Of a DNA stretch of 64,000 nucleotides, positions 1 to 63,843 are shown one piece after another. The stretch is from contig CAJINV010000018.1 in NCBI GenBank assembly GCA_905178155.1, positions 378,479-442,478 of the forward strand, given 5' to 3'. Below the pieces are notes generated by a model. It was not told the origin of the DNA, searched no databases, and saw only the letters and a list, made by a program, of their open reading frames with translations. The stretch is from Amoebophrya sp. A120 (taxonomy: Eukaryota > Protista > Dinoflagellata). Each line of letters starts with the position of its first letter. The first letter of the stretch is position 1. A program made the translations under genes and the position numbers.

Positions 1-3000
1 GTTCTGCTTGCTGGACTCCGGAAGTTTTTTCCACAAGTCCTCGTTCTCCCTACTCGGCAGGTCTTGCGTCAAATCGAGCCAGTGTTCCTCGTGTTTGCTG
101 GGTTCGTGTTGTGCAAACAACTGGTCGAATTGCGTCTTCGCTGCGATTATGCATTGCAAATATGTCTGGGTCTGGAAGATTGCGAGACTTCTCATGCTAG
201 TTTGACATGACTCAGAACTTTGTATTGCGTGGCCACGAAGACCTCCTCGTGTCTGTCATGCAAAAACGATGTTTCAGTTTCTCATGCGGAATACGCAACA
301 CAGAGCCACAAGAAAATCTGTCATGCTTGGCGGTGCATTACAGTGCGCTTTCTGTTCACTGACATGCATCACAAGTTTCCAGACCCAGACATATTTGCAC
401 TTGATAGCGATAATGGAGATGGAATCAGTCTCCTGCAGCAAATATCCTGTGCAAAAGTATCGTACTCGTATAAATGCAAGTCTTGCATTACAAATCTTTT
501 TCTTAAGGTAAATCAGCATGACTAATTTTATTTCTCATGCTAAGGAAATTTGTAATGCATTTATACGAGTACGATACTTTTGCAATGCATAGCAAATGCT
601 CCGTCAAAATCGTGACGAAATGCCGGCCGCCATTCAGGTCCATCTGCTGGAGCAGCGCGTAGGGGTCCTGTAACGCGGTCTGGAAGAGCAACCGCAAATG
701 GAACTTCGAGCTCCACCAGTGCGGGAAGCGATCGAAGGAAGAGAGCAACGTGTCAAACTGCAGCTGGTGCTTCACGCGCATGCTCCACGCCTGGTACTCA
801 TTCGTCTTCCAACATTATGCACTGCAAAAGCATCGCACTCGTAGTAATCGCAGTCACGCATTACAAATCTAATAATCAAGGGAAATCCGCATTACAAATT
901 ACATTCCTCATGCTGAGAAAATTAGTCATGCGATTCATACTAGTATGATGCTTCTGCAATGCATAAGCGTTTTTCCTCCGCCATGTGAGGTGCGGATTCC
1001 ATGATGTTCAAAACGGCCGACATCTCCTGACTCAAGGGCAGCCCGACATCGCTGCCGCGCAGATCGTCGCTGCTGTAGCGGGCAATTTCCGGCTGGCGCA
1101 ATCGTTTCAAGACAAAGTCCTTTTGGAGGTGCGTTTTGCCCAGATACCCTTTCACCTGAAACTTGCTGACATCCGCGAGAGATTCCCGCCAGACCCCCCG
1201 CCCGGAGGCCGAGATGGCGGACAGCTGCAAGAATTTCAGCAATTTATCCCTTAATCGGTCTTTCACCGCCACCGTTTTCTCTTCCTCCGTTGCCTTATTT
1301 CCCGAATTATTATCCGCAGTAGTTCTCGTGACATGCAAAAGCAAGTGCTTCTCTCGCAAGAATTGCTTTTGCGTCGCCAAACTGTCACCGAACGGAATGC
1401 TCAGCGGCTCCAACTGCAGGTAAAACGGGCCGTTGCTGGTCGGGAGGAGCGGTTTATTTGCGGTGAAACCGGTGCTGGCGCCGAGTAGTGAGCTGCCTTG
1501 CGTGAGTCCCGCGTACTTCGCCACGAGGCTAGGTCTCTTGTCCGGCGAAAAATCGTTCTGTATGCGCTCTGGCAAACCATCCGCATTCGCTGTAAACGAC
1601 TTCGGGCCCGCGAGCGGGTCATTTGCCTCGTTTTCCTTGCCGACGCGTTGCGGCAGCTCGGCATCGAAATCCTGGCCCAGTTCTACGTGCCGTTTCGTGA
1701 AGCCCACAATCTGCCCCTTCTCGTGCGACACGTAGGCGTTGAATTCCACATCCTGTATCGCAAGAAAAACGTGTTACAGTTACACATTGTGATGTTGCAG
1801 GCCAAGCAAGACAGACAAGCTCTGTCATGCCGGATATGCATAGGGGGCTCGTTATTTCATAGGTGTTTTCCCGTAGGATTTCGGCATTACAAGTTTTCTC
1901 ACTCATGCAGAGAAATTTGTGTTGCTGGATTCACTACAAATGTGTAACTGTAACAGTTTTTTCGTTGGATATCCTGGTACGCGATCTTATCCGCCCGTAG
2001 CAGCCTCTGTCGGCGGTCGGGCGTGTCGCTCTTGAACACGGTGGGCAGCCAGAATTTAGCCAAGGTGTTGTCATCTTTGCCCCCGTCATTCAATCCTCGG
2101 TACCCAAACTCGAACCAGTGCAGCCGGAGTTTCCACTTCATTAACACGAAAATGGATTGCGAAAACGACTCGCGGGTGCGCCACTGCGGCTCCTCGACTG
2201 CCTCTTTGACGATCTCCTCCTCCTCTGCAAACGTCTTTGGCGTGATCATCGTGTCGACTTCCTCGTCGGGCGCGGGCCACAGCTTCAGGGCTTTTTCCTT
2301 CCAGTCTCGGTACTCCTGGGAGTCTCTCCCGTAGTGCTATCCTGTGTAAAAACGTCCCCATAGTAAGTTGTCATGCTAATCCGCCATGACAGGAAGATTT
2401 GTAATGCCCATCTCCATGACAGGCATTTCTAATCATGTTTTGGCATTTGGAATGCTGTGAGCAGGAAGACAAAGTGGCTTTCTTATGCGGCGTCTCTTGA
2501 TAACCAGCACGACACTGGAGATTGAAACTTGTCATGCGCAATTCCTAAAACTTGGAGATTTGTGTTGCAAGTTTACCAACTTGACTATGGGGACGTTTTT
2601 GCTCAGGATACGTGCGCCACCGGGTTCTTGTTGTTCACTTGCCAGCGCTCCCACGCTTCCTTCAGCCCGTCAATAGTCCATTTGTGCGATATCAAAAGAA
2701 CAAGTCCCCCCCTCCCATATCGAAATGGAATTTCTGATGCTGGATTTGTGTACACAAATCAGCTTTGTATTGCAGGAAGGCACTGCGACCAGATCCCCAG
2801 GCTCGGCAGGGGCGTATGGGTCTAGTTGTTCAGCATTGCAAACGGCTCCCCTTTAGGCCCACCAGCATGACAAATCGCTTCCATAATGGGACGGAAGCGT
2901 CAGCCCTTGTCTTCTTGCAAGACAAATGTGATTTGTGACCTCAAATCAGCAACACAAATTTTCGGAAGCATACCGCTTCAATATGGGGAGGGGGGATTTT

Positions 3001-6000
3001 TCCTTTTAATATGCGAGGAAAGGGCTCGCTCATTCGGCGCCGCGGCCGCGCCCCGGGCCATGTAACTCAGGGGCTGCCAGTGTCTGAAAGTGTTTTTGAT
3101 ATTTGCCTTGTCAGTCAGATCGTCAAACGAAACCGTGAGCCCCCAAAACCTTGTGATCCATTTGGATATCAATTGCAAAAATGTCTGGGTCTGGAAGAAT
3201 GCGCGACTTGTCATGCAGCTTTTCCATGACCCATGAGGTCTGGAATGCAGGACCTAGCATGACAGAGTCTGTGCGATCTCTCTCATGCCTATCCTGCATG
3301 AGAAACTCCCTCCCGACTTGGTCAAAACTGGACGACTTGTGGTAATCATGCAACACAGATATTTGCATGCTTCAGATTTAGCATGACAAGTTGCATTCTT
3401 CCAGACCCAGACATTTTTACATTTGATATTGGATTCCCAGTTTCCCCCGGCAAACGCCGCCTTTTCGGACTTGAAGGGAGCCTCGTATTTTTGCAGTTTC
3501 CACTCGGACTTGGCTTCCTGTTTGTACCGGAGGTAGAGCGAAGAGACGTTAGTTTTAGGATGATGGGGATCAATACCATCCACCTTCTTCACAATCTTCA
3601 TTGCTTTCGCTTCATCCACTTCGAACCAGCGGAAAAAAGCGTCCTCCATTTTAGTGTCCAAATCCTGCGCTTTCATTCCGCTGCTCGCGTCCCGAATCTG
3701 TTTCAGCTTGCGGAGAAGGTCTCGATCCATCGCATCCTCATTTTGCTCCTCCGCAAAGCCTTCCAGCAGAGCCTCCTTGAAGAGACGACGACGTTCCGCC
3801 AGAGGCTCATACTCACAGTTGTTTTGGTCGTTTAGCTCGATCTTTCCGGTAATCCAGAGCTCCTCGCGTTCTACCGTTTCATCGAGTGCCTCGGCATATG
3901 CATTGCAAATATTTCTGGGTCCTCCGGAAACTTTCGAACTTGTGACGCTAATAAATTTCTTCACAACTACACGCATCAATTTCTCATGCATAGGCAGCAA
4001 AAGTTGCCCACTTCCTGTCATCGAAATAATGGATTTGTCTTCATGCGGATTAGGCATTGCGGAACCTTTTCTAGACCTGTGATGCTGGGGCTTCCACGCC
4101 AGACCTTCCGTGTCATACAAAAACAGCATGACAAAAATCTGCACTCTTCCAGACATATTTGCATCTCATACTGCATGCATCTGCCTCCCATTTGTGTACT
4201 TCAGCTGTTCGTTTTGATTATTGAGCTTCACTTTGAACAAGCCCTTTTCTGGGTCATCATTGTGATACACCTCGTTTTCCATGTAGCACTTTTTCAGTCG
4301 CTGAGTCTTGCAACTGCCGGTGAAGTCAAAGCTTGGCCTGGCGATGTAGACGTGGTCAGGATGTTTCCCAGTGAGCAGGTACGCTAAGAACGCAGCTTTC
4401 CGCCGCCTTATCCTGTGTAAAAACGTCCCCACCCCATAGTCAAGTTGGTAAATCTGCAACACAAATCCCCAAGTTTTGGGAGTTTTGCATGACAAGTTTC
4501 CATCTGTAGCGTCGTGCTGTTTAGCAAGGGCAGCCGCATGAGAAAGCCAGCCTCTCATCCTGTTTACAGCATTACAAAGTCCAAAACACGATTGGAAATG
4601 CCTGTCATGCAGATCCGCATTACAAATGTTCCTGTCATTGCACACTTGCATGACAACCCTGGAGTGGGGACGTTTTTACACAGGATACGCCTCTCGCGGT
4701 CCCCATCCGGCTCTTCGATGGCGTTCAGGTCTTCGGCATGATATCGAAAGGAAAAATCCCTCCTCCCCATATCAAAGTGGCAATCTGTGTTGCGGGATTT
4801 GTGTACACAAATCAGCTTTGTCAATGCAGGCAGATGGCGCAAAGCCTGGAAGGAGCTGGCTAGAGGTGGGCGCCCAGCATGGCAGAGGTCTACCCTGTTG
4901 GCGCAGCAGCATTACAAATCGCCTGCGTAAAGCGACGAACGCTCTGGCTTTGCTCTCTTGCAAGACAGACCTGATTTGTGACCACAAATCAGCAACACAA
5001 ATTTTCAAAAGGATGCCTTTTCGACATGGGGAGGGGGGATTTTTCCTTTTGATACGTGGATGTGTTTGAACATGTACCCCACTTGGTCTTATCCTGCGCA
5101 AAAGTATCGCACTCGTACTGCAGTCATGCATTGCAAATCTTTTCCCTAAGGTAAATCAGCATTACAAATTTTATTTCTCATGCTGAGAAAATTTGTAATG
5201 CATTTATTTATACGTGTACGATACTTTTGCACTGCATAGGTCTGCGTCTTCCACGAATTTCCTCCTGGACTCGTCCCCACTGTGTTGCCTATGCTCTGCA
5301 AAAGTATCGTACAACTCGTAGTAATTGCAGTCATGCATCACAAATTTTTTTCCTGAGGTAGATCCGCATGACAAATTTTTATTTCTCACGCTGAGGAAAT
5401 TTGTAATGCATTTTATACGAGTACGATACTTTTGCACAGCATATTGCCAGTAGAAATACGATTTTTTGTCCGGGATTTATGGATGTGTCAGGATTGAAAT
5501 CGACAGAGTTGAAATAACTTGTAATGCCGAAAATCGATACCAGTTGGGAGCCCAATTTCCAAGCGGCGCATGACAAAATTTTCCGAGCGCCGGAATCCAA
5601 TTTGTCATGCTGTTTGGGCACAGAAGACTGCTTTTGTCATGCTACTTTAGCAGCTCTATTTCAAACCCCAACCACGCTGACAGTTGGCCTCACTTGCCAT
5701 CCCGGCAAGACAGGCACTTCATGCCTTGCATTTTCTGCATGGCAAATCATTTCAACTTTGTCGATTTCAAACCTGACGCTTCCATAAAATTTCGGGCGAC
5801 TCGGACTCGAAAAGAAACTTCGGGTCCTGTTTATGACTTGCTCAAACGTTACAATCTCAAATCGTTTACCATAGAATCTGGAATTTGTCTTGCATGATGA
5901 GCATGACCGAATCGTAGAGCATTCTACTTTCTGCAATACAAATCTCGCCAAGCTCTAGTGCGGTTTGGGGCTCCGAAACTTGTCATGCGCAATCCTGTGG

Positions 6001-9000
6001 GAGTAGGCCAGAAGATGTTGCGCATTTTGCAACGCAAATTCCAGATTCTATTCTAACGTTTGAGATTGTAACGTTTGAGCAAGTCATACCGTTCCTGCTC
6101 GTGCGACCCGTCGATCTTGAAGTACTGCGTTAATTTTTGCGTCAGCAGCGCGGCCTCCGGGTCAAAACTCATTTCCTGGGCGCGCAGCACTTCGCATTGG
6201 TGCTTCACTTCCTCGGTCACGGCCGCGCTCGCAGGCTGGCCGGCCAGTGGCGCTAGGACCTGTTGTCGCGCGTCGTCATGGAGCAAGCCGCAGTCGGTGT
6301 CCGACGGGGGCAGAAAGTGAAGTCCCGCCTTCTTCGCCTGGCGGTCGCCGAGAACCACATCCTGAATGCCTTGAAAGTTGTCGGGATCCTCAGAAATCTT
6401 GCTGGACTTGGCCCCCTGGCGGATCAAGCTGTACCCGATGGCCGCCAGCTTCAAGAGCTCCGCGCGGACTTTCGTCCTCGAGAGCAGGGTATCAACGGTA
6501 AAAATGTCTGGGTCTGGAAGAATTCATGTTTGTCATGCTTGTCTGGCATGACTCTTAAATCTGTCATGCACGTTACCCAAGAGCTCCGCTTTTCTGTGAT
6601 GCAGAAGCGCAGTTTGTCATGCAGAATAGGCAACACCTAGGAGCTCAGAAACTTGTCATGCTCAGCCAGAATTTGTAGCCTCATCATGAGACGCTACCCA
6701 GCATCACAAGTTCCCAGACATCCAGACATTTTTACTTTTGATACAGGGTTTTCTTCTCCGAGTGCGCCAACGCGCGGATGAAAACGGACTGGTACGACAG
6801 CATAAGGCATCAACTGCAAATATGTCTGGGGCTACTGGAAGATTGCAAGGTTTGGCATGCACATTTTGCATGACCAATGATTGTCTGTAATGCATGACCT
6901 AGCATCACACACTTTTAGTAGAACCCTTCCTGATGCCTATTCCGCATGACAAATGCCCTCTCCACCGCGTAGCACAATCAGGGCAGATCCTCTTGCTGGT
7001 CATGAAATACAGATTTTTTTAGAATCCAAAGACAGGATGACAAGTTTGGATCCTTCCAGACCCAGGCATATTTGCAATCCATATGACCCCGTCCAGGAAT
7101 TTGAACGACTCGAGCATGATTCGCCCGAGGTTTCTTATCGCAAGAAAAAAGTGATACACTTACACATTGTGTTGCAGGAGCCGCAAGACAGACAAGCTTT
7201 ATCATGCAGGAAATGCTTGCGAGGATCGTTTCCTACGTGTTTTCCCTTTTAATGTTTGCACTACAAGTTTTCTCTGCCACACAGAGAAAATTTGTGATGC
7301 AGAAACTCAAACAAATGTGTACCTGTAAAAACACTTTTTTCTTGTGATATTTCTCGCGTCTAGCGCATCGTCGTTCTCGTTGTCACTGTAGGACTTGACA
7401 AAAGCCTCTAGGTCCCAAGCGTCCGCTATCCCAGAAAAAAAAGCTGGCAGGGCATATTTGTATTGCAAAAATAAATACACGCAAAAATTTGTCATGGGTG
7501 GCTCCATAGCATGCTGCTTCGGATATGCAACGCAGATTTTTTTGCGTATTTATTTTTGCATTACAAATTATATGCCCTGCCAGCTTTTTTCTGTGTGATA
7601 TCCGCAGCGTCTTGTCTCTCCTTCTTCGTCGGAGTTCCGCTATTGTTCGTTGGGCCGAGCTATCAAATGCAAAAATGTGTGGGTCTGGAAACTTGTGATA
7701 CTAAAATGTGCATGATGAAAACACTTCCGAATGCAGTCCGGCATGACAACGTCCCAAAACGCTTTCTCATAGGCAACCTGTTGGTGATGCAATACAGATT
7801 TTCTTTTCTAGGTATGGAAAGCTAGCATTACAAGTTCCAACCTTCCAGACCCAGACATTTTTACAATCCATACGAGCTGCAGGCTCTTCAGCGCCACAGA
7901 CTCGACCGTGGCTTCGAGTAGCCGGTGCTTTGGAACCGGCAGTTGCCCCACCAAATCCCGCCCGAAGGTTTCCAGCAGGGCCGGGAAATCGGTGCCGCGC
8001 CGCATCTTGGGCCCCTTCCGGACGATGGTCACGATGAGCGGCGGTCGGTTCTCCTCCGGCTGTTCCCACCAGGTTTTCCACTTCTGACAGCACGGCGCGC
8101 AGTTGCAGGTGGTGGATTTCCTGTCCAGCGTGTAGTCGCAGAAATTGTTTCCGCACCCGCGAGGACGGTCTTTCCCCTGCGGATTCCAAGACCCGGGCAT
8201 ATCGGTGCCCGGGGGTCTTTGGAATTCCTGGAAATACTCCCCATCCGTCAGCTGCGCAAATGTCTTTGCCTTAAACTCCGGCTTACGCGGTTGCGGTTTC
8301 GCGCCCGCTTTTCCCTTGTCGAACTTTTGTTCGAAGGGGCAGTTTGCGTCCTTCCCAGATTTCTTCCAGCCGCGGGTCAAAACTAAGCTGATTTCCGATT
8401 CCAAAAACGCGTCCTGGTGCTCCTTTTGGAAGTCAGACGGGATTATCACACAGAAAAAAGCAGGCTGGTCATATTTGTATTGCGAAATTGATAAATACAC
8501 AAAAAGATCTGTATTGCATATCCTAAACCGCGTGCTATGGGGCCGCCCATGACAAGTTTATCTGTGTATTTGTTTTTGCATTACAAATATGCCATCCTAG
8601 CTTTTCTCTCTGGGATAGGGATCTCAAAGCGAGTGGCTCGGTCAATCATGTCCTTCAAATCCTTCACGCTGCTGCCGCCGTCAATCCGGCCAAGCTTCAG
8701 CTCCCGGCCGTGGACCTTCACGCCAGCACGACTGGGAGTGCTCCGTCGGGACTCCAAGTCGTAGATTTGGAGAGCATTCCACATGCTGTTCTCCTGCGAA
8801 CAGCTCCGGTACTCCTCCTCGTCTTGCGGAATCAGGAGCAGCTCACCTGCGGTCTGTAACCTGTACTTCGTCCCCTCGTCAGCCTTATCAAATGCAAATA
8901 TGTCTGGGTCTGGAAGAGCGTAAACTTGTCGTGCAGGTTTTCCATGACCCATGAGGTCTGGAATGCGGGACCTAGCATGACAGAGTCTGTGAGGTCTCTG

Positions 9001-12000
9001 CCATGCCTATCCTGCATGAGAAACTCTCCCCAATCTTGGTCGAAAGTGGACAGCTTTATTTGCCACTCATGCAACACAGATTTCTGCATGTGATTCGGAT
9101 TTAGCATGGCAAGTTGCAATCTTCCAGACCCAGACATTCTTGCAACTCATACGCCTCTTTCTCTTCCATCTCGTACACAATGCGGATGTTCTCATCTATC
9201 CAAGAAAAAAACGCTGTTGGTGTAAATTTGTGATGCGCCACATGCAAGATGGTTGCGTCTGTCATGCTTGGCATGCATCGTGGGGTCCATTATAGGGCGT
9301 TTTCGCGTACTATCTGCGCATGACAGGTTTTTGCTGTCATGCCAGACAAATTTGTAATGCTGTTCCTCCAAAAAAGTTACACCTACAATGTTTTTTTCTT
9401 GGATATCATCGTGCGCGACTGTGCCGGTAGTCGGGTTTTTTTGCGGGATCCCCGCCTCTTCCCCGAAATCCTCAACGAGTTTCAGGAAATCACCGGAATC
9501 CTGCTTAAACCCCAACCGTTGCTGTCCGTTCAAATCGAGGAATTTCGCAAGTCGGTGCAAAACGGAGAAGCCCCATCCGGGCTTGGATTTGTCAATCCGC
9601 TCCATGTCCGCGCGGAGGTTGTCCAAGACGGACCGTTTCTCTTCGAACTGCACCGTCGCGTCCCCCGGCCGGGGGTACCCCTTGGTTTGGGACAAGTGCG
9701 AGGCCTTCAGGCCCTGCATGAACTCCCCGATTTTTTTCAGATCTGGATCCACGTGATTCGGGTCCTCGACATCCATAGCGCCTGCTCCCCTCGCTCTCGG
9801 TGTCGGCTTCGCGTTGGCGGGATCGTACCCAAAGGGCTTTTGCAGACCGCCGTCCGGTATCAAATGTAAAAATGTCTGGGTCTGGAAGAGTCATGTTGTT
9901 TTTGCATGACACAGAAGGGCTGGCATGGAAGCTCTAGCATCACAGGTTTCGAAAAGCTTCCGCAATGCCGAATCCGCATGACAAGTCACCCATTTTGGTG
10001 ACAGAAAGCAGGCAGCTTTTCCTACCTATGCATGAGAGATTTTTCTGTGTTCTAAAATGCGCATCACAAGTTTGGATTCTTCCAGACCCAGACATTTTTA
10101 CAGTTGATATCCGGCCGTCTGGCTCGCGTGAGCACGGCGAGCTCCGCAACGATGTCTTGCTTCATATGGCGCTCTCAACTGTTACATTCTCAAGTGTTAC
10201 TGTGATGCAAGAATGGAAAAAATGAAAGGAGGAAGATAGTGCCTTTTGCATTACAAATTTTGTGCAGATTTTGCCTTTGGTGCTGTTTAGCCCTTCGCAA
10301 ATTTGTCATGCGAAGCAGCTTGATCTTGTGGATGATCGTGGTATTTTTGCATGACAAATTCATGTAACAGTTGAGAATGTAACGTTTGAGAACGCCATAC
10401 TTCAGCGAGACGGACTTTCGCGTCCGGATTTCAGCGAGGTTTGCTTTCTATCCCAGAGAAAGGAGCAGGCAGGGCATATTTGTAATGCAAAAAGACATAC
10501 ACAAAAAAATCTGTCACGGGCGGCCCCGTAGCATGCTGTTTAGGATGCGCAATACAGATTTTTTTGTGTGTTTATTTTTGCATCACAGACATGACCTGCG
10601 TGCTTTTTTCTGTGTGATACTTTCGCGGATTTCGCCTCCGTTAAGAACATCACGGTCGCCATATCAAAAGGAAAGATCCCCCCTCCCCATATCGAAGTGG
10701 AAATCTGTGATGCGGGATTTGTGTGCACACATCGGCTGTGTTTTGCAGCAGAAGACTGCAGGCAGATACAAAGCCGGAGTAGGGGCGTTTTGTTGTGGGG
10801 GTCTAGCAAGGCAGGCACATCCTCCGTAGGCCCTACAGCATTACAAATTGCCTGCAGGACGCGGCAAGGTGTTTGGATTTGCCTTCTTGCAATACAGAGA
10901 CGATATGTGGTCTCAAATCAGCATCACAAATTTTCAGAACTATCCCGGTTCAGTATGGGGAGGGGGGATTTTTCCTCACAATACGCCAGAAGTCTCTTGA
11001 GCGTTTTCACCCTCAATTCCAGTGAGTGCGCCATAAGTTCCCCTCTGCACTGTCTCTGCAGCAGAACTAACTTCCCCTCGGCCTTCGCTTTGGGGTTAAT
11101 GATTCTACTATGGGCCCAGCCGGCCATGTCTTTCGCCCGCTCGTTTGCGAACAACCTAAGTTTGGCTGTCTTCTCGGAACTGAAAACTCTGTCTGCTCGG
11201 AACTTCGGATTCATATGCATTGCAAAAGTATCGTACTCGTATAAATGCATTATAAATTCCCTCAGCATGAGAAATAAAATTTGTCATGCGGATTTACCTT
11301 AGGAGAAAAAATTGGAATGCATGACTGCAATTACTACGAGTACGATATTACTTTTGCACAGGATAATTCAAGCGGACCAGCGGTTCCTCCTGGTCGTCTT
11401 GCTCCTCGTTTGCCCCCTGTAACGGTGCACAACTCCCCCTTCCCCTCATTTGTATAGCATGAACGGCAATAGTACAAGCATCAACACCTCCAATGGTGGT
11501 TTTGCATGACAAATTTGCACTGCAGTGTAGTGCTGCTCCTTGGGCTACCAGAACTTGTCATGCAAACAGTGCCTAGAGCAGGCAAGGGGTGGAATGGGTA
11601 AGTGTGGATATCCTAAACCCTGAAACCTAACCTAAACCCTTTCCGGATCGAACTTGTGCAGCAGGAGAAGGCGTAGATCGTAGGTGAGACGGTCGCGACG
11701 ACAGCCATCCCGTGCCGGCGGCGGTGGGGCCCTACCTAAACCTAGACCGGAAAAAAAGACCGGAAAAAAACTGCTTGGTGCCAGTTGGGCCCGGGGAACA
11801 AGAGGCAGAGCAAAAAAGGAGGATTTGCCGGCAAGGGGTGGAATGGGTAAGTATTTTGCATGACAAATGAGGGGGAGGGGAAGTTGTGCACTGTCATACG
11901 CCCGCGGCAGAGGCGCTGGCCGCATTACGACCCCCGCCTCGTTTGGCCACGTTTGCTTCGGGTTCGTTGAAGTGCCAGTCATTCTCGTGGCCCACGGCTC

Positions 12001-53393: not shown

Positions 53394-56349
53394 CTTGTTC
53401 ACCTCGTACAAATTGTCTAGTTGTCGAGGAATAATATTTTTAGCGTAATTATACTATTTTCTTGGAATTTCAGCTAAAATCAAAGATAGGAACCCTAAAC
53501 GTAAAAACTATGGTAACTATGAAGTGGGATTTTGTTCGTATAATATGATGTTTGTTAGTTTGTTTCTTTGTTTTCTGCGGATTACTGTACGTGGCAAACC
53601 GAGGATATGATAGCGAATATCAAATATAGTAGAGTATTCGTCTAAATTCTTGCTGCTTCAACCGCGAAGAGACAAGAATATCGTGCTAAGTATCAAGCGC
53701 ATTACGTCTCACAGCGCGGCTGTACTCATTCGTATTCTGTATCGACAGGTTGTTGTACCTGTACTTAGTAGAGAAAGTCCTAGTCCAAGTCGCTTTGTAT
53801 TCACAAGTTCTAAGAATAAAGAAAGAGTATTTTCAGTCGTGTCTATGTTGATTTTCTACTCCTGCGCAGTGGCGGTGCGTCAGGGAATGAAACGACAATA
53901 AAGTGAAGTTTTGATGATTTTCTATGTTGGAGCTCCGCTTCGTTCTAATTCCGGATTCTGCTTACACTTGTATGCCAGTATCCGAATAGAATCTAAGTAG
54001 TATAATTTTTTTCCACCGACAGCACAGCTGTTGTACAAGCGAAGTTTATAACTTATGCGTATCGACAGTGAAGAAGTGTCAAACCCAAATAAACAATTTT
54101 GTTTCCACCTTTGTAGCAGCGACAGGTAAAAATAGCGAAAATCTTATACGGTGTCGTCTTCTAGTTTCACTAGAGAGGAGCAGTCACAAATCAACAGGCG
54201 ACTGCGACAAAAATGTTGACAGGCTCGACGTCGAAATAAGTGAGTGTAGCCGAAGTCCTCGTGTGGTCCGGTCTTTTCAGGGTTCACACGACAACGCTGG
54301 TTGACGAGAAACCACCACACACCACAATAAAGAATAGACACCAGCAGAACTAGTAGCAACTACTTCCTGTCTTCCTGTCAACGGGCGGTAATGGGATTTT
54401 CTGAAGGAAGTCGAAATTTGGATTATATTTCAGGCGGTTGATGGTACAAAAGTATTATATAAGTTCTTGTGGGGTGTTCTTCGCTGTTAATTGTGTACAA
54501 CTTGTACTCAAAAAATACGTCGAAACTCGTCTATGCCGCCGAAGATTCGTAGGAGTGGTGAAAAATGTAGCTAGAAAATGTGGCGGTTTTCTTGTAGCTT
54601 TTCTGTCCGGCTACAACAACCTTGCGGCCACCAGTCGATATTGCTAGTATACTTCTACCTAGTACCGGTAAAAGAAAAGTTTATTTTTCATCAAGCTACA
54701 AACGGTACTAGAGGTCGAATAGCTAGAATGAATGTAGTACTGAAATTATGTCGTGCTCTATTTCATCTGCCTCCACTTTTTTTATTTTCGTGGCTTCACC
54801 ACGTACAAGCTCCTCTTAGTTGGAAAAAAAAATAGAAACGTAAAATAATCCCGTCGCGAAAGACAAATCGAAATTCACAGAATCAATGAATTACGACCCG
54901 GTCGCACAACAAAGATGAACCTGTAGTGAGGTAAGCAACGGCATTGTTTGGTATTGAAAATGTGTCATCTCGGATGAAGATCTAGCATCTCTTCACACAT
55001 CAACTTAGACCCCTACTACTTAGATGGGCCCGGTTAAAAAAGATCTCCTTCACACGTGGTCATAAGAGTGCATTCCCACGACCGCCTTCCTTTGTCCTCG
55101 GAAACATCTCCGAACAAAGCAAGCGGCGTGGCGGTGAGACATAGTAGATCGACTTGATGTTACTGAGCCAGTCCTAGTGCGGACGTAGTAAAATAAGGAA
55201 GATCATTATCTTCATCCAGATGGAGTTGGAGATGTGTCGTTGTGTTCTTACTTCTAGATCCAATCATGATCATACATGATCTCATCTTCCGTGAACTCTT
55301 AGTACTATCCAGTCCAACAATAGTAGCACTGCAGGTGAGGATATCACCGTTGACACGTACGATCGTAATGCTGTTGGATCCTCACAAACGAAGATCTTGA
55401 ACTTTATGACTATCTGGCTGCGTCTGCGACTGCAGTACTTACGGAAAAGATCCTCCTCTAGGTGTCTTATTGATCTTCGCTTTGCAAAGTTGAGTGTAGG
55501 ACGAGCACAACTTCTTCGAAACATAAATAAATGGCTTGCACCGAGGGCACGCTGCATCGAGTCTTCTTAGTTAACGTGGAGGATTTTTGCCTTTTTAAAG
55601 CTAAAATGGGCGGCACTGCCGCGATTCTGATGAATAAAAAGAAGCAAAAAGTAACATATTGCGTGCGCTTGTACCAGCCGCAATTTTTCATGTTCTGGAC
55701 GAGACTACCGTCGTGTTTCGCGCAAAAATGCGCATAATTGAGCAAAGCTGATAATTTACAAGCAGAGAAACCGATACTGTTTCGCGAAAAACGAAGAAAA
55801 AATGCACAATTCATCAAAATTACTGAAATACAAACCGAGAGACCGACGGCGTTTCGCGAAAAAAAGTTGACGAACGGGCAAACCGCCGCTACCGAGGTAG
55901 AATTTGACACACGTGCACACAGTAAACCGCAAATAGAGAAGGAACAGTACTTACAACCTTGGTCGCTGTGCCGACGTTTATTTTCACGACGCAAGCAGTG
56001 CTGGACAAGAACAACTTGCCTCTCAGCTTCTATTTTTCTTTTAGTTTTTCATTTCAACAAAGCTCAAACACAACTTGATGTTGTCCCAAAATTTACCTTC
56101 GACAAAATCGTTCAAGAAACATATCAAGTGTTCATTGAAACGCGAAGTCAAAATCCAAACTCTGGTAATACTCATCAAAATAATTTTCACGACGGCCATG
56201 AAATCCTCGGGGCTATCCCTGCAGGCACATGGCTAGTTTGCCGTACATTACATGCATGGCAAATATTTTCTTCAAGTCTGTGAAATTATACAGATTTTCA
56301 TCTTCATTTCTGTTATCCTTATCCCCACCTCATCCTCAAACAAGAAATC
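53394..56349. other. AT-richer intergenic/UTR region without introners
   Basis: no convincing ORF, no TIR elements. Confidence 0.7.
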
Positions 56350-59300
56350 TTACAAAATCATTGGCGTCGGCAGGAAGGGTCCGTGCCGCCACAAGGCCAT
56401 CGGCGACGCCGCGTGAGATGCTAGCTCGTTGTGGTTGGTTATCAAGTGCAAAAATGTCTGGGTCTGAAAACCTGTGATGCTGAATTGAGCATGATTGAAG
56501 CGCTTGCAATGGCAGCCAAGCATGACAAGTTTTGGGACGCCTGCTTATGCCTAGAACGCATCACAAATTGCGTTTTTGCATGACAAAGGAAGTGGAACAA
56601 GCCCCTCTCTTGCTGCTCATGCAACAAAAATTTTCCAGGAATGCAAGACACGCATCACAAGTTCCACTGTTCCAGACCGAGACATATTTGCATTTGATAT
56701 TGGTCACGTGCGTGGAGGTCCCGAAATTTTCCACAGAGTCCTGGTAGAGGAGACTGGTGTCATCGTCGTCGAACCCGGGGAAGGTCAGGTCCGATTGTTG
56801 CCCTCCCGCAGCAGCGCCGTAGTTCTTCTTCGCCACCGCGGCGGAGAGCGAAATGCTCTTCACGACGTTAATGCTGTTTTTGGCCGGCACAGAAGATTTT
56901 TGAACCAGGGTGGATGAAACAGACGACTTCTTGGAAGAAGCAGTATGGACCTTCTTGTGGCGCGAAGATGTAGCTGTGTGTTTCATCTTCATCTCCTTCG
57001 CCCGCAGCTTCTCGTGCATTTTATCAAAGTGAAAAAAGCCCCCACCCCATATCAAAACGAAACTTCTGATGCTGGATTTGCGTACACAAATCAGATTTGT
57101 CTTGCAGTAGGGGACTGCAGGCCGATATCATGCCAGTGCGCAGAGGTTTTGGCCTAGGCGCTTAGCATGGGGAACGCCTATGCTGTAGGACCAACAGCAT
57201 TACAAACCGCCAGCATAATGGGGCGGAGCGGATGCCGTTGCTTTCTTGCAAGACAGACACGATTTGTGNNNNNNNNNNNNNNNNNNNNNNNNNNNNNNNN
57301 NNNNNNNNNNNNNNNNNNNNNNNNNNNNNNNNNNNNNNNNNNNNNNNNNNNNNNNNNNNNNNNNNNNNNNNNNNNNNNNNNNNNNNNNNNNNNNNNNNNN
57401 NNNNNNNNNNNNNNNNNNNNNNNNNNNNNNNNNNNNNNNNNNNNNNNNNNNNNNNNNNNNNNNNNNNNNNNNNNNNNNNNNNNNNNNNNNNNNNNNNNNN
57501 NNNNNNNNNNNNNNNNNNNNNNNNNNNNNNNNNNNNNNNNNNNNNNNNNNNNNNNNNNNNNNNNNNNNNNNNNNNNNNNNNNNNNNNNNNNNNNNNNNNN
57601 NNNNNNNNNNNNNNNNNNNNNNNNNNNNNNNNNNNNNNNNNNNNNNNNNNNNNNNNNNNNNNNNNNNNNNNNNNNNNNNNNNNNNNNNNNNNNNNNNNNN
57701 NNNNNNNNNNNNNNNNNNNNNNNNNNNNNNNNNNNNNNNNNNNNNNNNNNNNNNNNNNNNNNNNNNNNNNNNNNNNNNNNNNNNNNNNNNNNNNNNNNNN
57801 NNNNNNNNNNNNNNNNNNNNNNNNNNNNNNNNNNNNNNNNNNNNNNNNNNNNNNNNNNNNNNNNNNNNNNNNNNNNNNNNNNNNNNNNNNNNNNNNNNNN
57901 NNNNNNNNNNNNNNNNNNNNNNNNNNNNNNNNNNNNNNNNNNNNNNNNNNNNNNNNNNNCCCTCTTTTTGACCTCTCTGCACCCTCTGTGCCACTTAGGC
58001 GGCGCCTAAGGGTGGGCGCTTACTGCGGGCCTTATTCGCGCACCCTCTCGCGGACCCTCTCGAACGGGGTCCCGCGCCACCTCTCCACCTCTGTCGACCT
58101 CTTTTCTACCTCTGTCGACCTCTTTTTTACCTCTCGGCCACCTCTCTGGGACCCTCTGTCTACCTCTTTTTTCGCATGAATATAATGTATAGTAATCGCA
58201 ATACAAATTTCCGTAGCATTAGAAATGGAATCTGTAATGCGGATTTGCCTCAAGAAAAAGATTTGTAATGCATGACTGCGAAGATTACTACGTACGAGTA
58301 CGATACTTTTGCACAGGATACTCTTCGTCCTTTGCCAAAATGTCGTAGATGCTCGCCGCCAGTTTCTCCTCTTCCTTTTTCGACACGAACTGGTTCTCGC
58401 TTTGCAAAAACTCCTTTGACTTCACGGATTGGAGAAGATTGTCGGCGTATTTTTCTTGCTCCTTCTCCATGAAGGCATGTTGTTGTCCTTGTTCTTGATG
58501 ACCAGGTGCAGCAGCCGCGTTTGTGAAGGAGATGCGATTTTTCTTCTTGGCCAAAAACCCCTGCTGATCAACATGAGTGTGCGAAACCACGGACTTCACA
58601 ACATCCCGGACCGTCATCGAATCAGAAGCGGCACTCTTCTGCTGGGCAGAAGAAGTACTGGTGTGCGCGGCGGTCGGTTGCGTCTTGGAAGTAGTAGCTC
58701 CCGTAGTAGAAGACTTCTGCGCAGGGTCGTTCTTCATCTCGCGCACCTCCGTCACATAGTTGACGACCGGCGGGAGACCAGCAGTGTTCATTCTCGACGC
58801 ACCAGAGGCGTTCGCCAGGAAGTTGCGGCCTTTGGAAGAAGCACCAGAGTGGTCGCTCCCGCCGACCTTCTTCTCCACGACTTTCTTCTTTGCAAAATCG
58901 GTTTCATGGTTCGCTTTGGCAAAGCCGACCTGCAGACCGTCGCGATCGAAGACGGTGAAAAAGGCGCGAATGAAGACGTCGCCCAAGATCCAGGCCGGCT
59001 TTCCCATCTGCGTCTTGGGCTCTTCGTACCTTATGTATAGTGTGGTTTAGGGTTTAGGCTTCGGAGAGTTCTGAAGTAGATGACACCGTGATAGTATGTG
59101 GATAGGATTTCTTCAAGATACGAATATAGAAGATTTGCTTGAAAACAGGCTTGAAATAATGACATCATGACAAAAAACTACACTCCTCATAGTACTACCC
59201 GAATTCCATGTCCGCGGGCATAATCCCGAGGGCGCAGTTGGTCCGCTTCCCTTTGTGATCGAACTTATCCAAGAAAAAAACTGCGTTAGTGTAACTATCT

Positions 59301-62300
59301 TCGGCTGGTGACAGCATCACAAATTTGCTCTGTCTACATGATGTCATGCGTGGTTTGTAAGGGAAAACACACATGAGCAGAGGACTGCGCGGCTGTCTGG
59401 CATGACAGGTGTAACTTTGTTGCATGTTCTGCATCACAGATTTACACTTACACAGTTTTTTTCTTGCATAAAACTCTTCCATCATGTATTCTTTCGGGGT
59501 CAGGTCCAGCTCGTAGTTCTCTCCCTTGTCATCCCGGAAAATGTATCCTGTGCAAAAGTATCGTACTCGTGATCTTGCAATCACGCATTACAAATCTTTT
59601 TGCTAAGGTAAATCAGCATTACAAATCTTATTTTTCATGCTGAGGAAATTTGTAATGCATTTATACGAGCACGATACTTTTGCAATTCATAAAATGAAGG
59701 TCAGAGGTTTCAAGTTGTTGAATCCGTTACAGTCGTCTTCCACGCCGAGCACACTGATCATGTCCTTCACATTCGATTTATGAAATGCAAATATGTCTGG
59801 GTCTGGAAGAATGCAAGTCTGTCATGCTTGGCCGACAAGACAGAAAAGTCTGTCATGCTTGGCGCGCTATGGTGCCACTTGTTTGTCATGCACAAGGGCC
59901 ATTTGTCATGCGGCTCACGCTAGACATAGCCGCTCAGAAACTTGTCATGCGCGGCCCCCGAATACAGGCTGCGCATCATTCGGACATTAGCATCACAACT
60001 TTCCAGACCCAGACATATTTGCATGTGATACGATTCCGGAGCGGTGATCAAGCTGGTACCCGTGTCAATCAGCGCGGTGCACCCCTTCTTCGGGCAGAAC
60101 CCTATCAAATGCAAATATGTCTTGGTCCTCTGGAAGATCCCGAGATTTGTCATGCAGTTTATCCAAGCTCCACCAAGCGGCCTGGAATGCAGGTTGTAGC
60201 ATCACAGGATCTGCAGCCCCTTGGTGATCGATGCCTGCTCTGCATGAGAAATGCCCTCTAGCATGGGCACCTCTTGCAAGTCACGCAACACAAATTTTTG
60301 TACGATCCGCAACATGCATCACAAGTTCCCATCCTTCGAGACCCACACATATTTGCAATGCATAAACCCGAAGGGACTGTCATGTGCCTTCACGTCGACG
60401 AGATCGATGGTCCAACGAGATTTCATGGTCACCGGCGACCACTGCATCTTAGTGGCGCCCTTGTCACCGCCGAGGATCTTGTCGGGATCGACCTGATAAT
60501 AAACGGGAAGTGGAGATTGTGATGGCTTGGTGCGTTATTTCCGATGCCGAACCATCAAGATGACGAAGACCAACATGCAAGGGCACAGCAACAATCAATG
60601 ATGCATGTCTGGCTCAGTGATAAATGTAAGAACATGCACACTTCTGCATCTTCCCCCGCGATCGAAGGATCAGGATGGGAATGGGTGTTGATGTACAACC
60701 TGTGAGAAATAAAACAAAACCTGTTTATTTACCTTCCCAATCGTCATGTAGCCGGGCTTGGTCGGGTCCCCGCTGAAATAAAAGCCGTACTGGTTGTGCT
60801 CGATCAACTTTTTATCCAGCATGTTGTCCAGCACCGGGCGGTGGAAATTCCGTTTGTTCTGGTAGTATCCTGTACAAAAGCATCGTATTCGTATTTTGCA
60901 GTCATGCATTACAAATCTTTTTGTCAAGTCAAATCCGCATTACAAATTTATCTGTTTCTCAGGCTGAGAAAATTTGTAATGCATTTATACGAGTACGATA
61001 CTTATTTGCAATGCATAGGTAGTGATTCATATCCAATCCCAGCCCGAGAATCCCGTCCATTATCCCATGCAAAAACGTCCCCACCTCCCCATAGTTGTAA
61101 TGCAAGTCTGCATGCAGCTGCAAATATTTCTCATGCGGAGCCCCATAAGAAGCATTCTCGAGCCGTGTTTCGGAATTTGTGATGCTCCAAGCAGCATAAC
61201 AGGCTAGATCTGTGATGCTGTTGAACTAGCCAAATAGGACTACACTACACGGCCAAGTCTGTCATGCGCAACAAACAAAGCTGGGAGATTTGTCTAGCAG
61301 ATTTCCCAGCCTGAGTATGGGGCGGGGACATTTTTACTCAGGATACCCATCGGAGATTCCTTGAAGGGAAAATCCGTTTCCCGCAGCGTCACGCCCACGC
61401 CCTGCCAGGGCACCTCGATGTCGCCCAGCTTCACGTGGTCGGTTCCCCACTGCTATCAAGTGTAAAAATGTCTGGGTCTGGAAGAGTGCAACTTGTCATG
61501 CTAAGTAAATCTGAAGCATGCAAAAATCTGCGTTGCAGGATTACCAAAAGTCGTCCAGTTTTGACCAAGTCGGGAGGCAGTTTCTCATGCAGGATAGGCA
61601 TGAGAAGGATCGCACAGAATCTGTCATGCTAGGTCCTGCATTCCAGACCTCATGGGTCATGGAAAAGCTGCATGACAAATCGCGCATTCTTCCAGACCCA
61701 GACATTTTTACATTTGATAACTGCGCGCGGACGGCGCCCGTGCCGTAGAACAGATCGTGGCGGGTGCCGGTCGTGCGAAAAGTCTTCGATTATCAACTGC
61801 AAAAGTGTCTGGGTCTGGAAGATTGCCAGGCTTGTCATGCATATTTTGAATGACCCATGATGTCTGTGATGCATGCCCTAGCATCACAGATTTCTAGCGG
61901 ACTTTGTGATGGTGCCTCTACCGCATGAGAAATGCCCTCTCCACGTAGCACAAACTGGAGTCCTTTTGCTGGTCATGCAATACAGACTTTTTTAGAATCC
62001 AGAGACAGCATTACCAAATATAGCCGCTGGGGCGGGGGTAGTGAGGTCGTGGGCGTTTTTTTGCCGACCGCAGCCTTGGCCGCGGCTTTGCTTTTTATGG
62101 GTTCGTCATACCTCCGTGAGTAACGTTATGCCGCACGGTATGATGGCCACTTGGGAAACGTTGCAAATTTTGGCACATTTCCAAAATTACTTTCCGAAAG
62201 CCAGCCCCGATGCTATGGGGCCGATCCGGGTGCCACGGGGGCCGCCCAGAAAGCGAAGAAAAACCGGGCCCATAGCATGCGGATTGGCTTTGCGCGTCTG

Positions 62301-63396
62301 GCGCGCTTTTTATTTTTCGCGTTTTTATTTTTCACGCCGGCGCTTTTTGCAAAGCTTCCCAGGCTCTAAAACCGGCGAAAAGGCGGCCGCTTTCGCGGCC
62401 GCCCAAAATGCTCCGAAATCGCGGCCGTGCCAAGCTGTTTCGCTGTTCTGATTTTGGGCGCGTTTTTTGCGCGCCCTTTTTTGGGCGCCCCAAATCGCCA
62501 GAAACTAAGGCGGCGGGCGCCTCAGAAGGGCGCCCCTTTTGCCGGCTCCCCTGCGTCGTTTTATCAAGTGCGAATCGATAGTTTTCGACCGGGCTTGTTT
62601 GCCGCAAACGCCCCGGCCGCTCGATAAGTGAAAACTTTTTATGCTCAAAAACACTTCCGGCCGCTTGAAGACTGCCGGTCGTTTTTCACGGGAGGTGTCA
62701 AAAAAACTCCCTGGTTAGAACCGTTCGGTGACCTCACTACATACAAGTTTAGAATCTTCCAGACCCAGACACTTTTACATTTGATATCGATTTCCAGGGC
62801 GCAAAAGCCTTGTGGTTCTTGCAGCACGCATCCGGACAGAGCTTGCCGGGAACCTTTAAATCATTTTTTTTTCGCTATGTATACATCAACATGCCCACCA
62901 AGAGTAGTCGAGTACAATTGGTTGTTCCTCCTTCATCCTGATACGTTATTCTCAGGTAAAGACATTGTTCTCAAACTCAAAGATGTAAACGGTACTGTAC
63001 GACACGCATGAGAAATCTATTTTTCTGTACCCACAAATCGTTGCTGCCCGTGTCGAAGACGACAGTGAAGTTTTGCGGCGGAGTCCCAATCTCGATGTCG
63101 CCGTAGAACATCATGTTGTCTTGGTTCATCATCTCAATCTCCTGCGGCGTTGCGCGTCCCTTCTGCGCCCGCTGCACAACGGAAACGGTTGCCTGCGAGC
63201 GCTCGCGGTTCGTCGGCCGCAACTCAATTTGCGTGGACAACGCATGCGCTCCTTGGAAGAGGGTCGTTTGATGTTGCGCTGTCAAGAGATAAACAGCGCC
63301 AAAAATAGCTCGAGTGGAAAGTTTACTCAACATTTTGTTTATGATTTTTGCAAAATCTTTATGTTTAAAAATCAGGTTCTTCAGGGTAGAAGTCAA
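56350..63396 (-). CDS. Pepsin-family (A1) aspartic protease, cathepsin D/plasmepsin-like, with long low-complexity C-terminal extension; spliced
   Basis: Reconstructed motifs [34 protein letters not shown] (flap), [37 protein letters not shown]. Exons approx 63396-63031, 62853-62787, 61790-61720, 61453-61346, 61060-61018, 60865-60733, 60492-60365, 60102-60031, 59778-59692, 59543-59471, 59265-59199, 59029-58321. Exons 57021-56700 and 56439-56350 (stop TAA) lie across the gap and are less certain. Confidence 0.92.
56440..56699. mobile_element. Introner family A
   Basis: flanks ttggt/ttggt. Confidence 0.88.
57022..57268. mobile_element. Introner family E, cut by assembly gap
   Basis: left TIR only. 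Confidence 0.82.
57269..57959. other. Assembly gap
   Basis: run of N. Confidence 1.
57960..58195 (-). mobile_element. Second copy (5' part) of the nested Helitron-like element
   Basis: reverse complement of 13677-13912. Confidence 0.8.
58196..58320. mobile_element. Introner family B, reverse orientation, host of the nested element
   Basis: right TIR TACGAGTACGATACTTTTGCACAGGATA. Confidence 0.85.
59030..59198 (-). other. GT-AG intron enclosing a decayed introner (59032-59191)
   Basis: GG|GTAGTA...CATAAG|G joins MEFG|YEEP; residual TIR TATGnnnAGTGTrGTTT at both ends. Confidence 0.75.
59266..59470. mobile_element. Introner family K
   Basis: flanks gaact/aaact; joins MEEF|DHKG. Confidence 0.9.
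59544..59691. mobile_element. Introner family B
   Basis: flanks aaatg/aaatg; joins LTFI|FRDD. Confidence 0.92.
59779..60030. mobile_element. Introner family A
   Basis: flanks cgatt/cgatt; joins APES|NVKD. Confidence 0.92.
60103..60364. mobile_element. Introner family A
   Basis: flanks aaccc/aaccc; joins PFG|FCPK. Confidence 0.92.
60493..60732 (-). other. Canonical GT-AG intron
   Basis: AAG|GTAAAT...TATCAG|GTC joins MTIGK|VDPD. Confidence 0.9.
60866..61017. mobile_element. Introner family B
   Basis: flanks ggtag/ggtag; joins NHY|QNK. Confidence 0.92.
61061..61345. mobile_element. Introner family D
   Basis: flanks tccat/cccat; joins ESPM|DGILGLG. Confidence 0.92.
61454..61719. mobile_element. 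Introner family A, reverse orientation
   Basis: flanks actgc/actgc; joins VRAQ|WGTD. Confidence 0.92.
61791..62786. mobile_element. Introner family A with nested element
   Basis: flanks tcgat/tcgat; joins PWKS|KTF. Confidence 0.9.
62014..62741 (-). mobile_element. Nested GC-rich element with asymmetric subterminal inverted repeats (Helentron/Helitron2-like)
   Basis: GTAGTGAGGTC at 62038-62048 and GACCTCACTAC at 62730-62740; TA on both flanks. Confidence 0.6.
62854..63030 (-). other. Canonical GT-AG intron
   Basis: TGG|GTACAG...TTAAAG|GTT joins NDLW|VPGK. Confidence 0.9.
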
Positions 63397-63564
63397 TTTC
63401 AGTAATCAAGTGAGGAAACAGAAGCAGCAATAGCTGGTATCAAACAGAAACTTTCGGAAAAGGAAAGAAGAGAAAAGAATCGCCTCGTCGAGCAGGAAGA
63501 GAAAACTCAGAAAGCAATCCCCTTCAAGCAAGACGAAGGCGTCGTCTTCTGTAGGTGGTAAAAT

Positions 63565-63843
63565 TATCCTGAGTAAAAACGTACCCACACCAGAGTTGTA
63601 ATGCAGATTTGCAAAGACAGGAAGACTTGTAACGCGCATCCCCATGAGAGCCATTCCCAATTGTGTTTTGGAATTTGTGATGCTGTGAACAGGATGAGCA
63701 GATGAATCTGTGATGCGGCTGCACTTGCTAACCTGCACCACACTGCATAGTGAAACTTGTCATGCGTGACTCACAAAACTCCTAGGTTTGTGTTGCAAAA
63801 TCCTCATCCTGACTCTGGTGTGGGTACGTTTTTACTCAGGATA
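63565..63843. mobile_element. Introner family D upstream of the protease ATG
   Basis: perfect TIR TATCCTGAGTAAAAACGTACCCACACCAGAGT; flanks aaaat/aaaat. Confidence 0.92.

Follow-up and report, generated by a model that had tools for sequence, protein, structure and literature searches.

A short internal motif shared by otherwise dissimilar introner families in Amoebophrya sp. A120

Genes and introners of the window

The window is a 64,000-nucleotide (nt) stretch of contig CAJINV010000018.1 of the dinoflagellate Amoebophrya sp. A120, and we describe here a short motif found inside the introners that interrupt its genes. Positions 1-53453 of the minus strand are probably a single very large gene of more than 8,000 codons and approximately 100 introns; its two parts (Table 1) are probably continuous with one another across a gap of Ns. 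The gene at 58321..63400 has two DTG motifs and is presumably aspartic-protease-like.

The window contains 106 complete inverted-repeat introners, which form 13 families when classified by their terminal inverted repeats (TIRs): A (42 copies), B (16), C (13), D (9), F (6), E (5), G (4), K (3), H, I and L (2 each) and J and M (1 each). These letters were defined in this analysis and may not match those of an earlier note on the same DNA, which had been made from the sequence alone. The trinucleotide TAT is found at nearly all element ends (T, A and T at 208, 210 and 211 of the 212 ends, respectively), followed by A at end positions 11-13 (187, 190 and 205 of 212), where families G-J have TCA. 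The flanking 5-base pair (bp) duplication is exact in 77/106 elements; exact 4-bp or 6-bp duplications are found in 0/106. Being short, non-coding, multicopy and bounded by TIRs and a target duplication of fixed length, these elements have the features of transposable elements of the miniature inverted-repeat kind (MITEs), or non-autonomous TIR DNA transposons.

An internal motif in every family

The word GCATNACAA, counted exactly and on both strands, occurs 221 times in the window, compared to a mean of 3.18 and a maximum of 7 in dinucleotide shuffles. As the earlier note had claimed, it is repeated in all 13 families, with the exact 9-mer missing from 7 of the 106 copies. The consensus of a family-weighted matrix is GCAWBACARATT. 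Matrix sites number 556 in the 25,793 bp of the 106 elements (21.6/kb) versus 4 in 16,087 bp of exon (0.25/kb), making the elements approximately 85-fold richer and bearing out the enrichment that the note had proposed as a check. Nested and other inserts have 2 sites in 3,543 bp (0.56/kb), and the intergenic block of 2,701 bp has none; two GT-AG introns, together 415 bp, have 3. Because the window's own elements had been used to train the matrix, a second assembly served as an out-of-sample test (discussed below).

Elements carry approximately 4-7 sites each, or one per approximately 46 bp. Neighbouring sites are separated by a median of 32 bp (quartiles 23-48), and 41% of the 449 gaps fall within 20-35 bp; the spacing of 20-35 bp originally described agrees with the median gap but is slightly too dense. 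Both B sites cited at that time are exact matches (Table 1), and the D site is real but was placed one base off (4487-4495 inside element 4409-4687, not 4486-4494). Most families carry the motif in both orientations, as was claimed for all of them, the exception being family C, which is essentially one-directional. The remnant described near 59165 is a single 8-of-9 match (score 5.2), and a weak one, as approximately 0.1 such matches are expected by chance in 169 nt.

Two other origins of the motif were considered. An artefact of CpG decay was rejected, as this would give no specific word with fixed spacing; the observed/expected CpG ratio is 0.57 in the elements (depleted) versus 1.11 in exons, a possible trace of methylation. 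Derivation of the element end as a copy of the motif fits some families only.

Relatedness of the families and conservation of the motif

When families were aligned with the motif sites and the outer 13 bases masked, I and J proved to be related (z 26.5), as did G and H (z 5.7) and, weakly, E and K (z 2.9); the remaining pairs have z values of 3.0 or less. The 13 families thus reduce to 10 groups without detectable shared sequence once the motif is masked. The mutual unrelatedness asserted in the earlier note holds among these 10 groups but not within the three pairs, and the families do not align end to end as the descendants of one ancestor.

Changes private to single copies were counted in 85 of the 106 copies, from 11 groups of at least four. 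They affect 42/1,924 positions in the motif core versus 368/4,791 in the interior, a rate approximately 3.5-fold lower in the core (p = 2e-20); neutral decay of the motif, which the note had named as the result that would overturn its proposal, is not what these counts describe. Among 109 disjoint nearest-neighbour pairs, the core/interior ratio is 0.59 in the closest pairs and 0.27 in the most distant (trend z -2.2), and a ratio rising toward the closest pairs is what selection acting mostly on lineages that transpose would produce. Where the duplication is mismatched, copies show twice as much core change as the others (18/498 versus 24/1,426, p = 0.02), with interior change not raised (7.9% versus 7.6%). 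We lean towards selection that acts mainly in transposing lineages and is relaxed after insertion.

Pair spacing

Same-orientation sites 31-33 bp apart are found in 8 of the 10 groups. When one random copy is drawn per group, a mean of 6.5 groups have such a pair, compared to 1.0 for the same spacing window in randomised maps and 3.4 for the best window anywhere in those maps; 0/200 maps reached the observed 6.5. Overall, 86 of the 106 copies have a pair 30-33 bp apart. The 19-nt spacers of 31-bp pairs have a between-group identity of 0.36 versus 0.30 when shuffled. Three turns of B-DNA measure approximately 31.5 bp, so the paired sites would face the same side of the helix. Neither a wrap period of 80-84 bp nor an alternating lattice of 16 bp was supported beyond the 31-33 bp pair. 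The recurrence of this pair across groups, and in unrelated families of the second assembly, is new here.

Introners of a second assembly

A search of metagenome contigs with a grammar pattern gave 162 loci, nearly all of the named ones from assembly JACKZZ01. The 239 elements called at these loci have 21.5 motif sites/kb. Among the 113 elements that do not match the search pattern, 112 have at least two motif sites and 89 have a 30-33 bp pair. Ten JACKZZ01 elements went unmatched when compared with the window by BLAST. Of these, the ones 151-153 bp long are related to B and the ones 209-214 bp long to E/K; those of 109-112 bp and 312-347 bp have no clear relative, yet the motif is present in them; the minimal element of 109 bp consists of two inverted repeats around one pair of sites 32 bp apart.

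Five candidates longer than 480 bp were rejected: four are elements with nested inserts, and the fifth, on a contig that does not belong to JACKZZ01, is a chance call. No convincing element was seen in eight other large loci, likewise from outside JACKZZ01, which were taken to be chance pattern matches. The family A end pattern had no matches among viral contigs.

Splicing and RNA evidence

Removal of the 82 elements of positions 1-37202, each together with 5 bp, leaves the minus-strand frame given in Table 1. Other removal offsets yield fewer than 400 codons, except for +8 (which keeps the frame), with 3,831 codons. Nine elements are lacking in the contigs of runs X1 and X2, which come from one sample and are presumed to be RNA. 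In these contigs, exons of the protease-like gene are covered piecewise and free of mismatches: a direct joint leaves out one C element, and contig gaps of 282, 39 and 131 nt equal the exon lengths that we predict when eight further elements and three GT-AG introns are removed. Raw RNA runs X7-X9 gave only short element pieces and no splice joint over positions 1-20000 of the window. The X7-X9 reads, apparently from another strain, match pieces of A, B, C, F and K at approximately 90-95%, indicating related elements there. In family B, the end that is 5' in the mRNA begins with TATG in 15/16 copies.

Strong sites show no strand bias on the mRNA (234 sense versus 245 antisense); a strong sense site is missing from 8 copies and an antisense site from 11. 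Family C, with all of its sites pointing one way, lies both ways relative to the gene (9 and 4 copies) in intact frames. For RNA, folding predicts that motif copies pair with one another at 0.50-0.69 in eight families (B, E, F, G, H, I, J and L) but only at 0.04-0.25 in families A, C and K; the interiors also fold better than their shuffles (z -0.6 to -6.5). At the outer sites, the variable base agrees in 17/34 family A copies versus 18.2 expected (no covariation) and in 7/8 of D and 4/5 of F (both with little variation). Pooled agreement is 38/124, with a C-C or G-G clash in 66 copies; mixed orientation affects the expectation for this pooled set. Two inverted-repeat positions covary from left to right (z 4.7 and 6.6, lineage effects included). 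No Rfam match was found in the window.

The folding and covariation check proposed in the earlier note thus gave a divided answer: motif pairing is predicted in eight families, but there is no compensatory change at the motif. Its suggestion that the mixed orientation would pair into RNA stems is not supported as the reason for the motif, given this lack of covariation at the variable position and the one-directional copies of family C. The motif looks to act as double-stranded DNA, because there is no mRNA strand bias and no compensatory change and because motif-less introns still need to be removed.

Host genes, old introns and other inserts

The frame of the large gene requires the removal of an old intron without a motif site (45388..45739). 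In two further cases, GT-AG splice sites lie a few bases outside a TAT...ATA relic, and these appear to be old introners converted to GT-AG introns. The 169-nt length of the one at 59030..59198 agrees with the RNA contigs; the predicted boundary of the other is the sole GT/GC-AG solution in a scan of 3,500 combinations. The motif array has been lost from the old introns. A 1.3-kb insert with an exact 24-bp direct repeat serves as a control; when it is taken out together with 24 bp, the host frame becomes longer. For IS481EU/IS1202, the consulted part of PMC10045372 describes duplications of approximately 25 bp. Inserts are also nested within introners. The GAGAGG-repeat insert is a second mobile element and may favour introners, and the 726-bp insert in an A copy splits a motif site, with its host element still absent from the RNA contigs.

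Table 1. Features of the window, with introners of the second assembly in the last rows (positions prefixed by L)
Feature	Position	Strand	Remarks
Host gene part	1..37202	-	5,225-codon stop-free frame once 82 elements, each with 5 bp, are taken out
Host gene part	38244..53453	-	3,009-codon frame once four old introns and the 1.3-kb insert are taken out as well
Presumed aspartic-protease-like gene	58321..63400	-	Two DTG motifs; spliced form in RNA contigs
Complete inverted-repeat introners (106)	148..63843		13 TIR families by ends; TAT...ATA-type ends; 5-bp target duplication
Family B copy	443..591		Motif sites 485-493 (+) and 550-558 (-)
Family B copy	5290-5443		31-bp same-orientation pair, 5335-5343 and 5366-5374 (span 5335..5374, +)
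Family A copy	15618..15879		262 bp; 26/26 end bases complementary
Family C copy	18956-19237		31-bp pair, 18990-18998 and 19021-19029 (span 18990..19029, -)
Family D copy	34625..34946		322 bp; sites at element positions 48, 81 (-), 149, 181, 264 (+)
Family C copy	63565..63843		Six sites in a single orientation, gaps 31, 48, 33, 49, 31; with 5 bases, missing from RNA contig X1 record 1
Old TAT...ATA intron	45388..45739		Perfect 5-bp duplication; stops in all three frames; no motif site
Apparent old introner, now GT-AG intron	46977-47275		Around a TAT...ATA relic; predicted boundary
Apparent decayed introner, now GT-AG intron	59030..59198	-	TAT...ATA relic 59032-59191; motif remnant 59165-59173 (8/9)
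Control insert	47685..48990		1.3 kb; 32-nt inverted arms; exact 24-bp direct repeat; one weak motif site
Insert inside L-family element	11581-11829		249 bp; telomere-like repeats; 26-nt direct repeat
GC-rich GAGAGG-repeat insert	13686-14525, 57960-58180		Nested in two B copies
Other inserts nested in A copies	62016-62741, 25431-25519, 30296-30407		First is 726 bp
GC-rich GAGAGG-repeat insert	L020:505-1608		In a J copy of the other assembly
Introner families absent from window	L050:2473-2581, L053:1008-1119, L062:2774-3086, L069:2861-3207, L069:5003-5314		Including the 109-112 bp minimal element

Candidate readers of the motif

On balance, we favour the view that the motif copies are putatively bound by one transposase, probably of integrase-like type, or by a DNA-binding partner of it, and that this transposase would mobilise all of the families. 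We infer the binding, the identity of the protein and the ability of young copies to be spliced without the motif. The enzyme, a DDE transposase resembling integrases (Ginger/IS3EU-like), would cut at the TAT/ATA ends with a 5-bp stagger, loading cooperatively on paired internal sites that both face the same way (31-33 bp being three helical turns). The ends and the internal sites would carry the identity of an element, leaving the inner inverted repeats and spacers free to drift or be replaced, and many "families" would arise as a result. Once a copy is fixed, its motif could decay, with the terminal hairpin, or a later switch to GT-AG, keeping it spliceable. Pointing to a transposase are the shared ends and duplication, the enrichment of the motif, its pair spacing, the conservation of its core, its lack of strand preference and the absence of the array from the insert with a 24-bp duplication. 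The earlier note's proposal of a shared cis code read by one protein is supported in this respect, the motif being found in all groups, conserved while spacers diverge and arranged in 31-33 bp pairs. Its three candidate readers fare differently: the best fit is a transposase common to all families, a host protein, of chromatin or otherwise, may still be the reader, and an intron-definition factor fits worst (no strand bias, 8 copies without a sense site and removal of motif-less introns). Tentatively, we go further and suggest that one protein might recognise TAT ends and helically spaced internal pairs rather than inverted-repeat sequence, such that any stretch gaining the ends, a complementary hairpin and a pair could become a new self-copying intron.

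Several results weigh against a transposase. Pfam identified no transposase or integrase among 8 open reading frames (ORFs) of the window and 53 ORFs of the 162 loci, and the text of Farhat et al. (PMC7789003), as far as it was available, reports that no transposase was found in A120 and rejects general mobilisation by one. No cognate autonomous element sharing the ends was found in the window or the 162 loci. The inner inverted repeats differ between families, unlike those of ordinary MITEs that share a transposase. With respect to spacing, family H has no 30-33 bp pair (0/2 copies), and distances of 46-50, 33-36 and 80-84 bp are not above the null, 31-33 bp alone having passed; first sites cluster near 36, 44-48 and 56-59 bp from the element end without beating the best-window null; and general helical phasing is unsupported, a 10.4-bp periodicity (p = 0.007) being matched by one of 16.2 bp. 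Core change is still lower than interior change in the closest pairs (11/432 versus 86/1,978, p = 0.10), and constraint on the core may persist after insertion. Finally, families favour one orientation relative to the gene (72/98, expected 59, p = 0.00025), which points to some strand-specific effect.

An alternative reader is a host DNA-binding or chromatin protein (for example sequence-specific, histone-like or DVNP-associated) that the elements would have co-opted to bend DNA, to stay accessible or to escape silencing. All of the DNA-level evidence fits such a protein equally: it would explain a motif shared by families with different inverted repeats, no transposase is reported in A120, and DVNPs are encoded by Amoebophrya. 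We nevertheless consider it unlikely, as intergenic DNA, where host regulatory sites might be expected, has no sites, the motif tracks a single end-and-duplication class and is nearly absent from other insert classes, and the 80-84 bp spacing expected from wrapping does not exceed the null. Less likely again is an RNA signal, either for a splicing factor that defines non-GT-AG introns or for stems that join the splice sites. The elements are removed from RNA, U1 small nuclear RNA was not detected in A25 or A120, and the pairing predicted in eight families, the folding of the interiors, the outer-site agreement in D and F and the orientation bias are all in its favour; they are opposed by the equal use of both strands, the copies devoid of sense or antisense sites, the two-way placement of family C, the low pairing in K, C and A and the absence of covariation in family A and in the pooled set. 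In addition, the intron at 45388-45739 and the 1.3-kb insert are essentially motif-free, yet, as read from the frame, both need to be removed.

Lowest in our estimation, and largely refuted, is a functionless relic, in which the motif and its spacing would descend from a single ancestor, either an element or a 31-bp repeat, that recombination and duplication had spread. Some families are indeed related (I and J, G and H, E and K, and two new ones to B and E/K), the end structure is common to all, and the spacers of 31-bp pairs are slightly more alike than shuffled ones. However, the masked alignments do not join the 10 groups, a neutral relic would not keep a word of 9-12 bp while all of its flanks randomise, and the rate of core change is 3.5-fold below that of the interior. 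The families may share an ancestor, but selection on the motif would still be needed.

How the tens of thousands of non-canonical introns of Amoebophrya move and are spliced is an open question; the portion of the genome paper covered here describes no family-wide signal and no A120 transposase. That unrelated families share one conserved word, and with it a fixed pair spacing, points to a single mobilisation system, and a site shared for one protein would help to explain the spread of so many different introns. The motif could also be used to pull down its binding protein and to recognise the autonomous element, and it separates the needs of spreading from those of splicing. If the more tentative suggestion is true, that one protein recognises TAT ends and internal pairs rather than inverted-repeat sequence, these introners would be a class of transposon with split duties, motif grammar providing mobility and a sequence-free hairpin providing splicing; the existence of some 2,000 reported introner families in A120 would then be accounted for.

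Comparison with known systems

The elements of the window are very likely the published introner elements of A120. According to the text and Fig. S19 legend of PMC7789003, those introners have inverted repeats of TAT, 7 variable bases and AAA, 5-bp direct repeats and non-GT-AG boundaries, are approximately 240 nt long and form very many families. The elements described here have the TAT-7-A(>=3) inverted repeat and, at their boundaries, the direct repeat of 3-5 nt (exact 5 bp in 77/106), and they are removed from mRNA without GT-AG (one by a direct joint, eight by exact length). Their family lengths match those of A120 families in the consulted part of Gozashti et al. 2025 (PMC12130899), where families of 149, 208-227, 252-262, 278, 305 and 319-322 bp are classed as TIR DNA of unknown superfamily. 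The same source lists an 808-bp A120 family, fam38, with TA/TA termini, a 5-bp duplication and an ORF with integrase-like homology, labelled Ginger; its main text describes fam38 as without the homology, termini and duplication expected of Gingers. The ends and duplication of fam38 are the same as those of the window elements, and it is a lead only towards a cognate autonomous element. The text of Farhat et al. describes terminal repeats and a hairpin only, with no shared internal motif or pair spacing. No internal motif appears in the text and supplement portions of PMC12130899 examined, and the motif word has 0 matches in the supplement text of the A120 papers (PMC7789003, PMC12130899) that was searched. 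A motif shared across unrelated families with a pair spacing is undescribed in the literature examined, including the preprint 10.1101/2020.10.14.339549, although figures, supplements and subscription papers may hold it.

Among integrase-like groups, in the sections of PMC2836005 and PMC10045372 consulted, IS3EU/GingerRoot have TA..TA termini, IS481EU has TNT..AYA, and TDD-4/5 have a 5-bp duplication. The window elements share the TA..TA termini of IS3EU/GingerRoot but not the 6-bp duplication (0/106 exact), and the 4-5 bp duplication of Ginger2/TDD but not the TGT termini (position 2 is A in 210/212 ends). The duplication of IS481EU is approximately 4, 15 or 25 bp (PMC10045372) as opposed to 5 bp here. 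In these sources, no integrase-like group combines TAT ends with 5 bp as a rule.

Short repeated internal sites, present in either orientation and bound cooperatively by the mobilising protein, are described in the consulted parts of papers on the Emigrant MITE/Lemi1 (PMC1636448) and on the THAP sites of Galileo (PMC3688188); Sleeping Beauty, CACTA and hAT are further subterminal-repeat cases cited there. The window motif resembles these transposase-binding repeats by analogy, being short, internal and conserved among mobile copies, with binding here predicted. As described in those parts, the Emigrant repeats copy part of the inverted repeat, whereas the window word lies outside the family-specific inner repeat, and the Galileo repeats lie within the element's own long repeats, whereas the window word is common to unrelated families and fills the whole interior. 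The coral CMITEs share an alignable internal region, according to the portion of PMC2872659 consulted; the window families share only the short word and its spacing. Thus, introners and transposase-binding repeats as a kind are already known, and what is new is a word that recurs across unrelated families, independent of the inner repeat and with a characteristic pair spacing.

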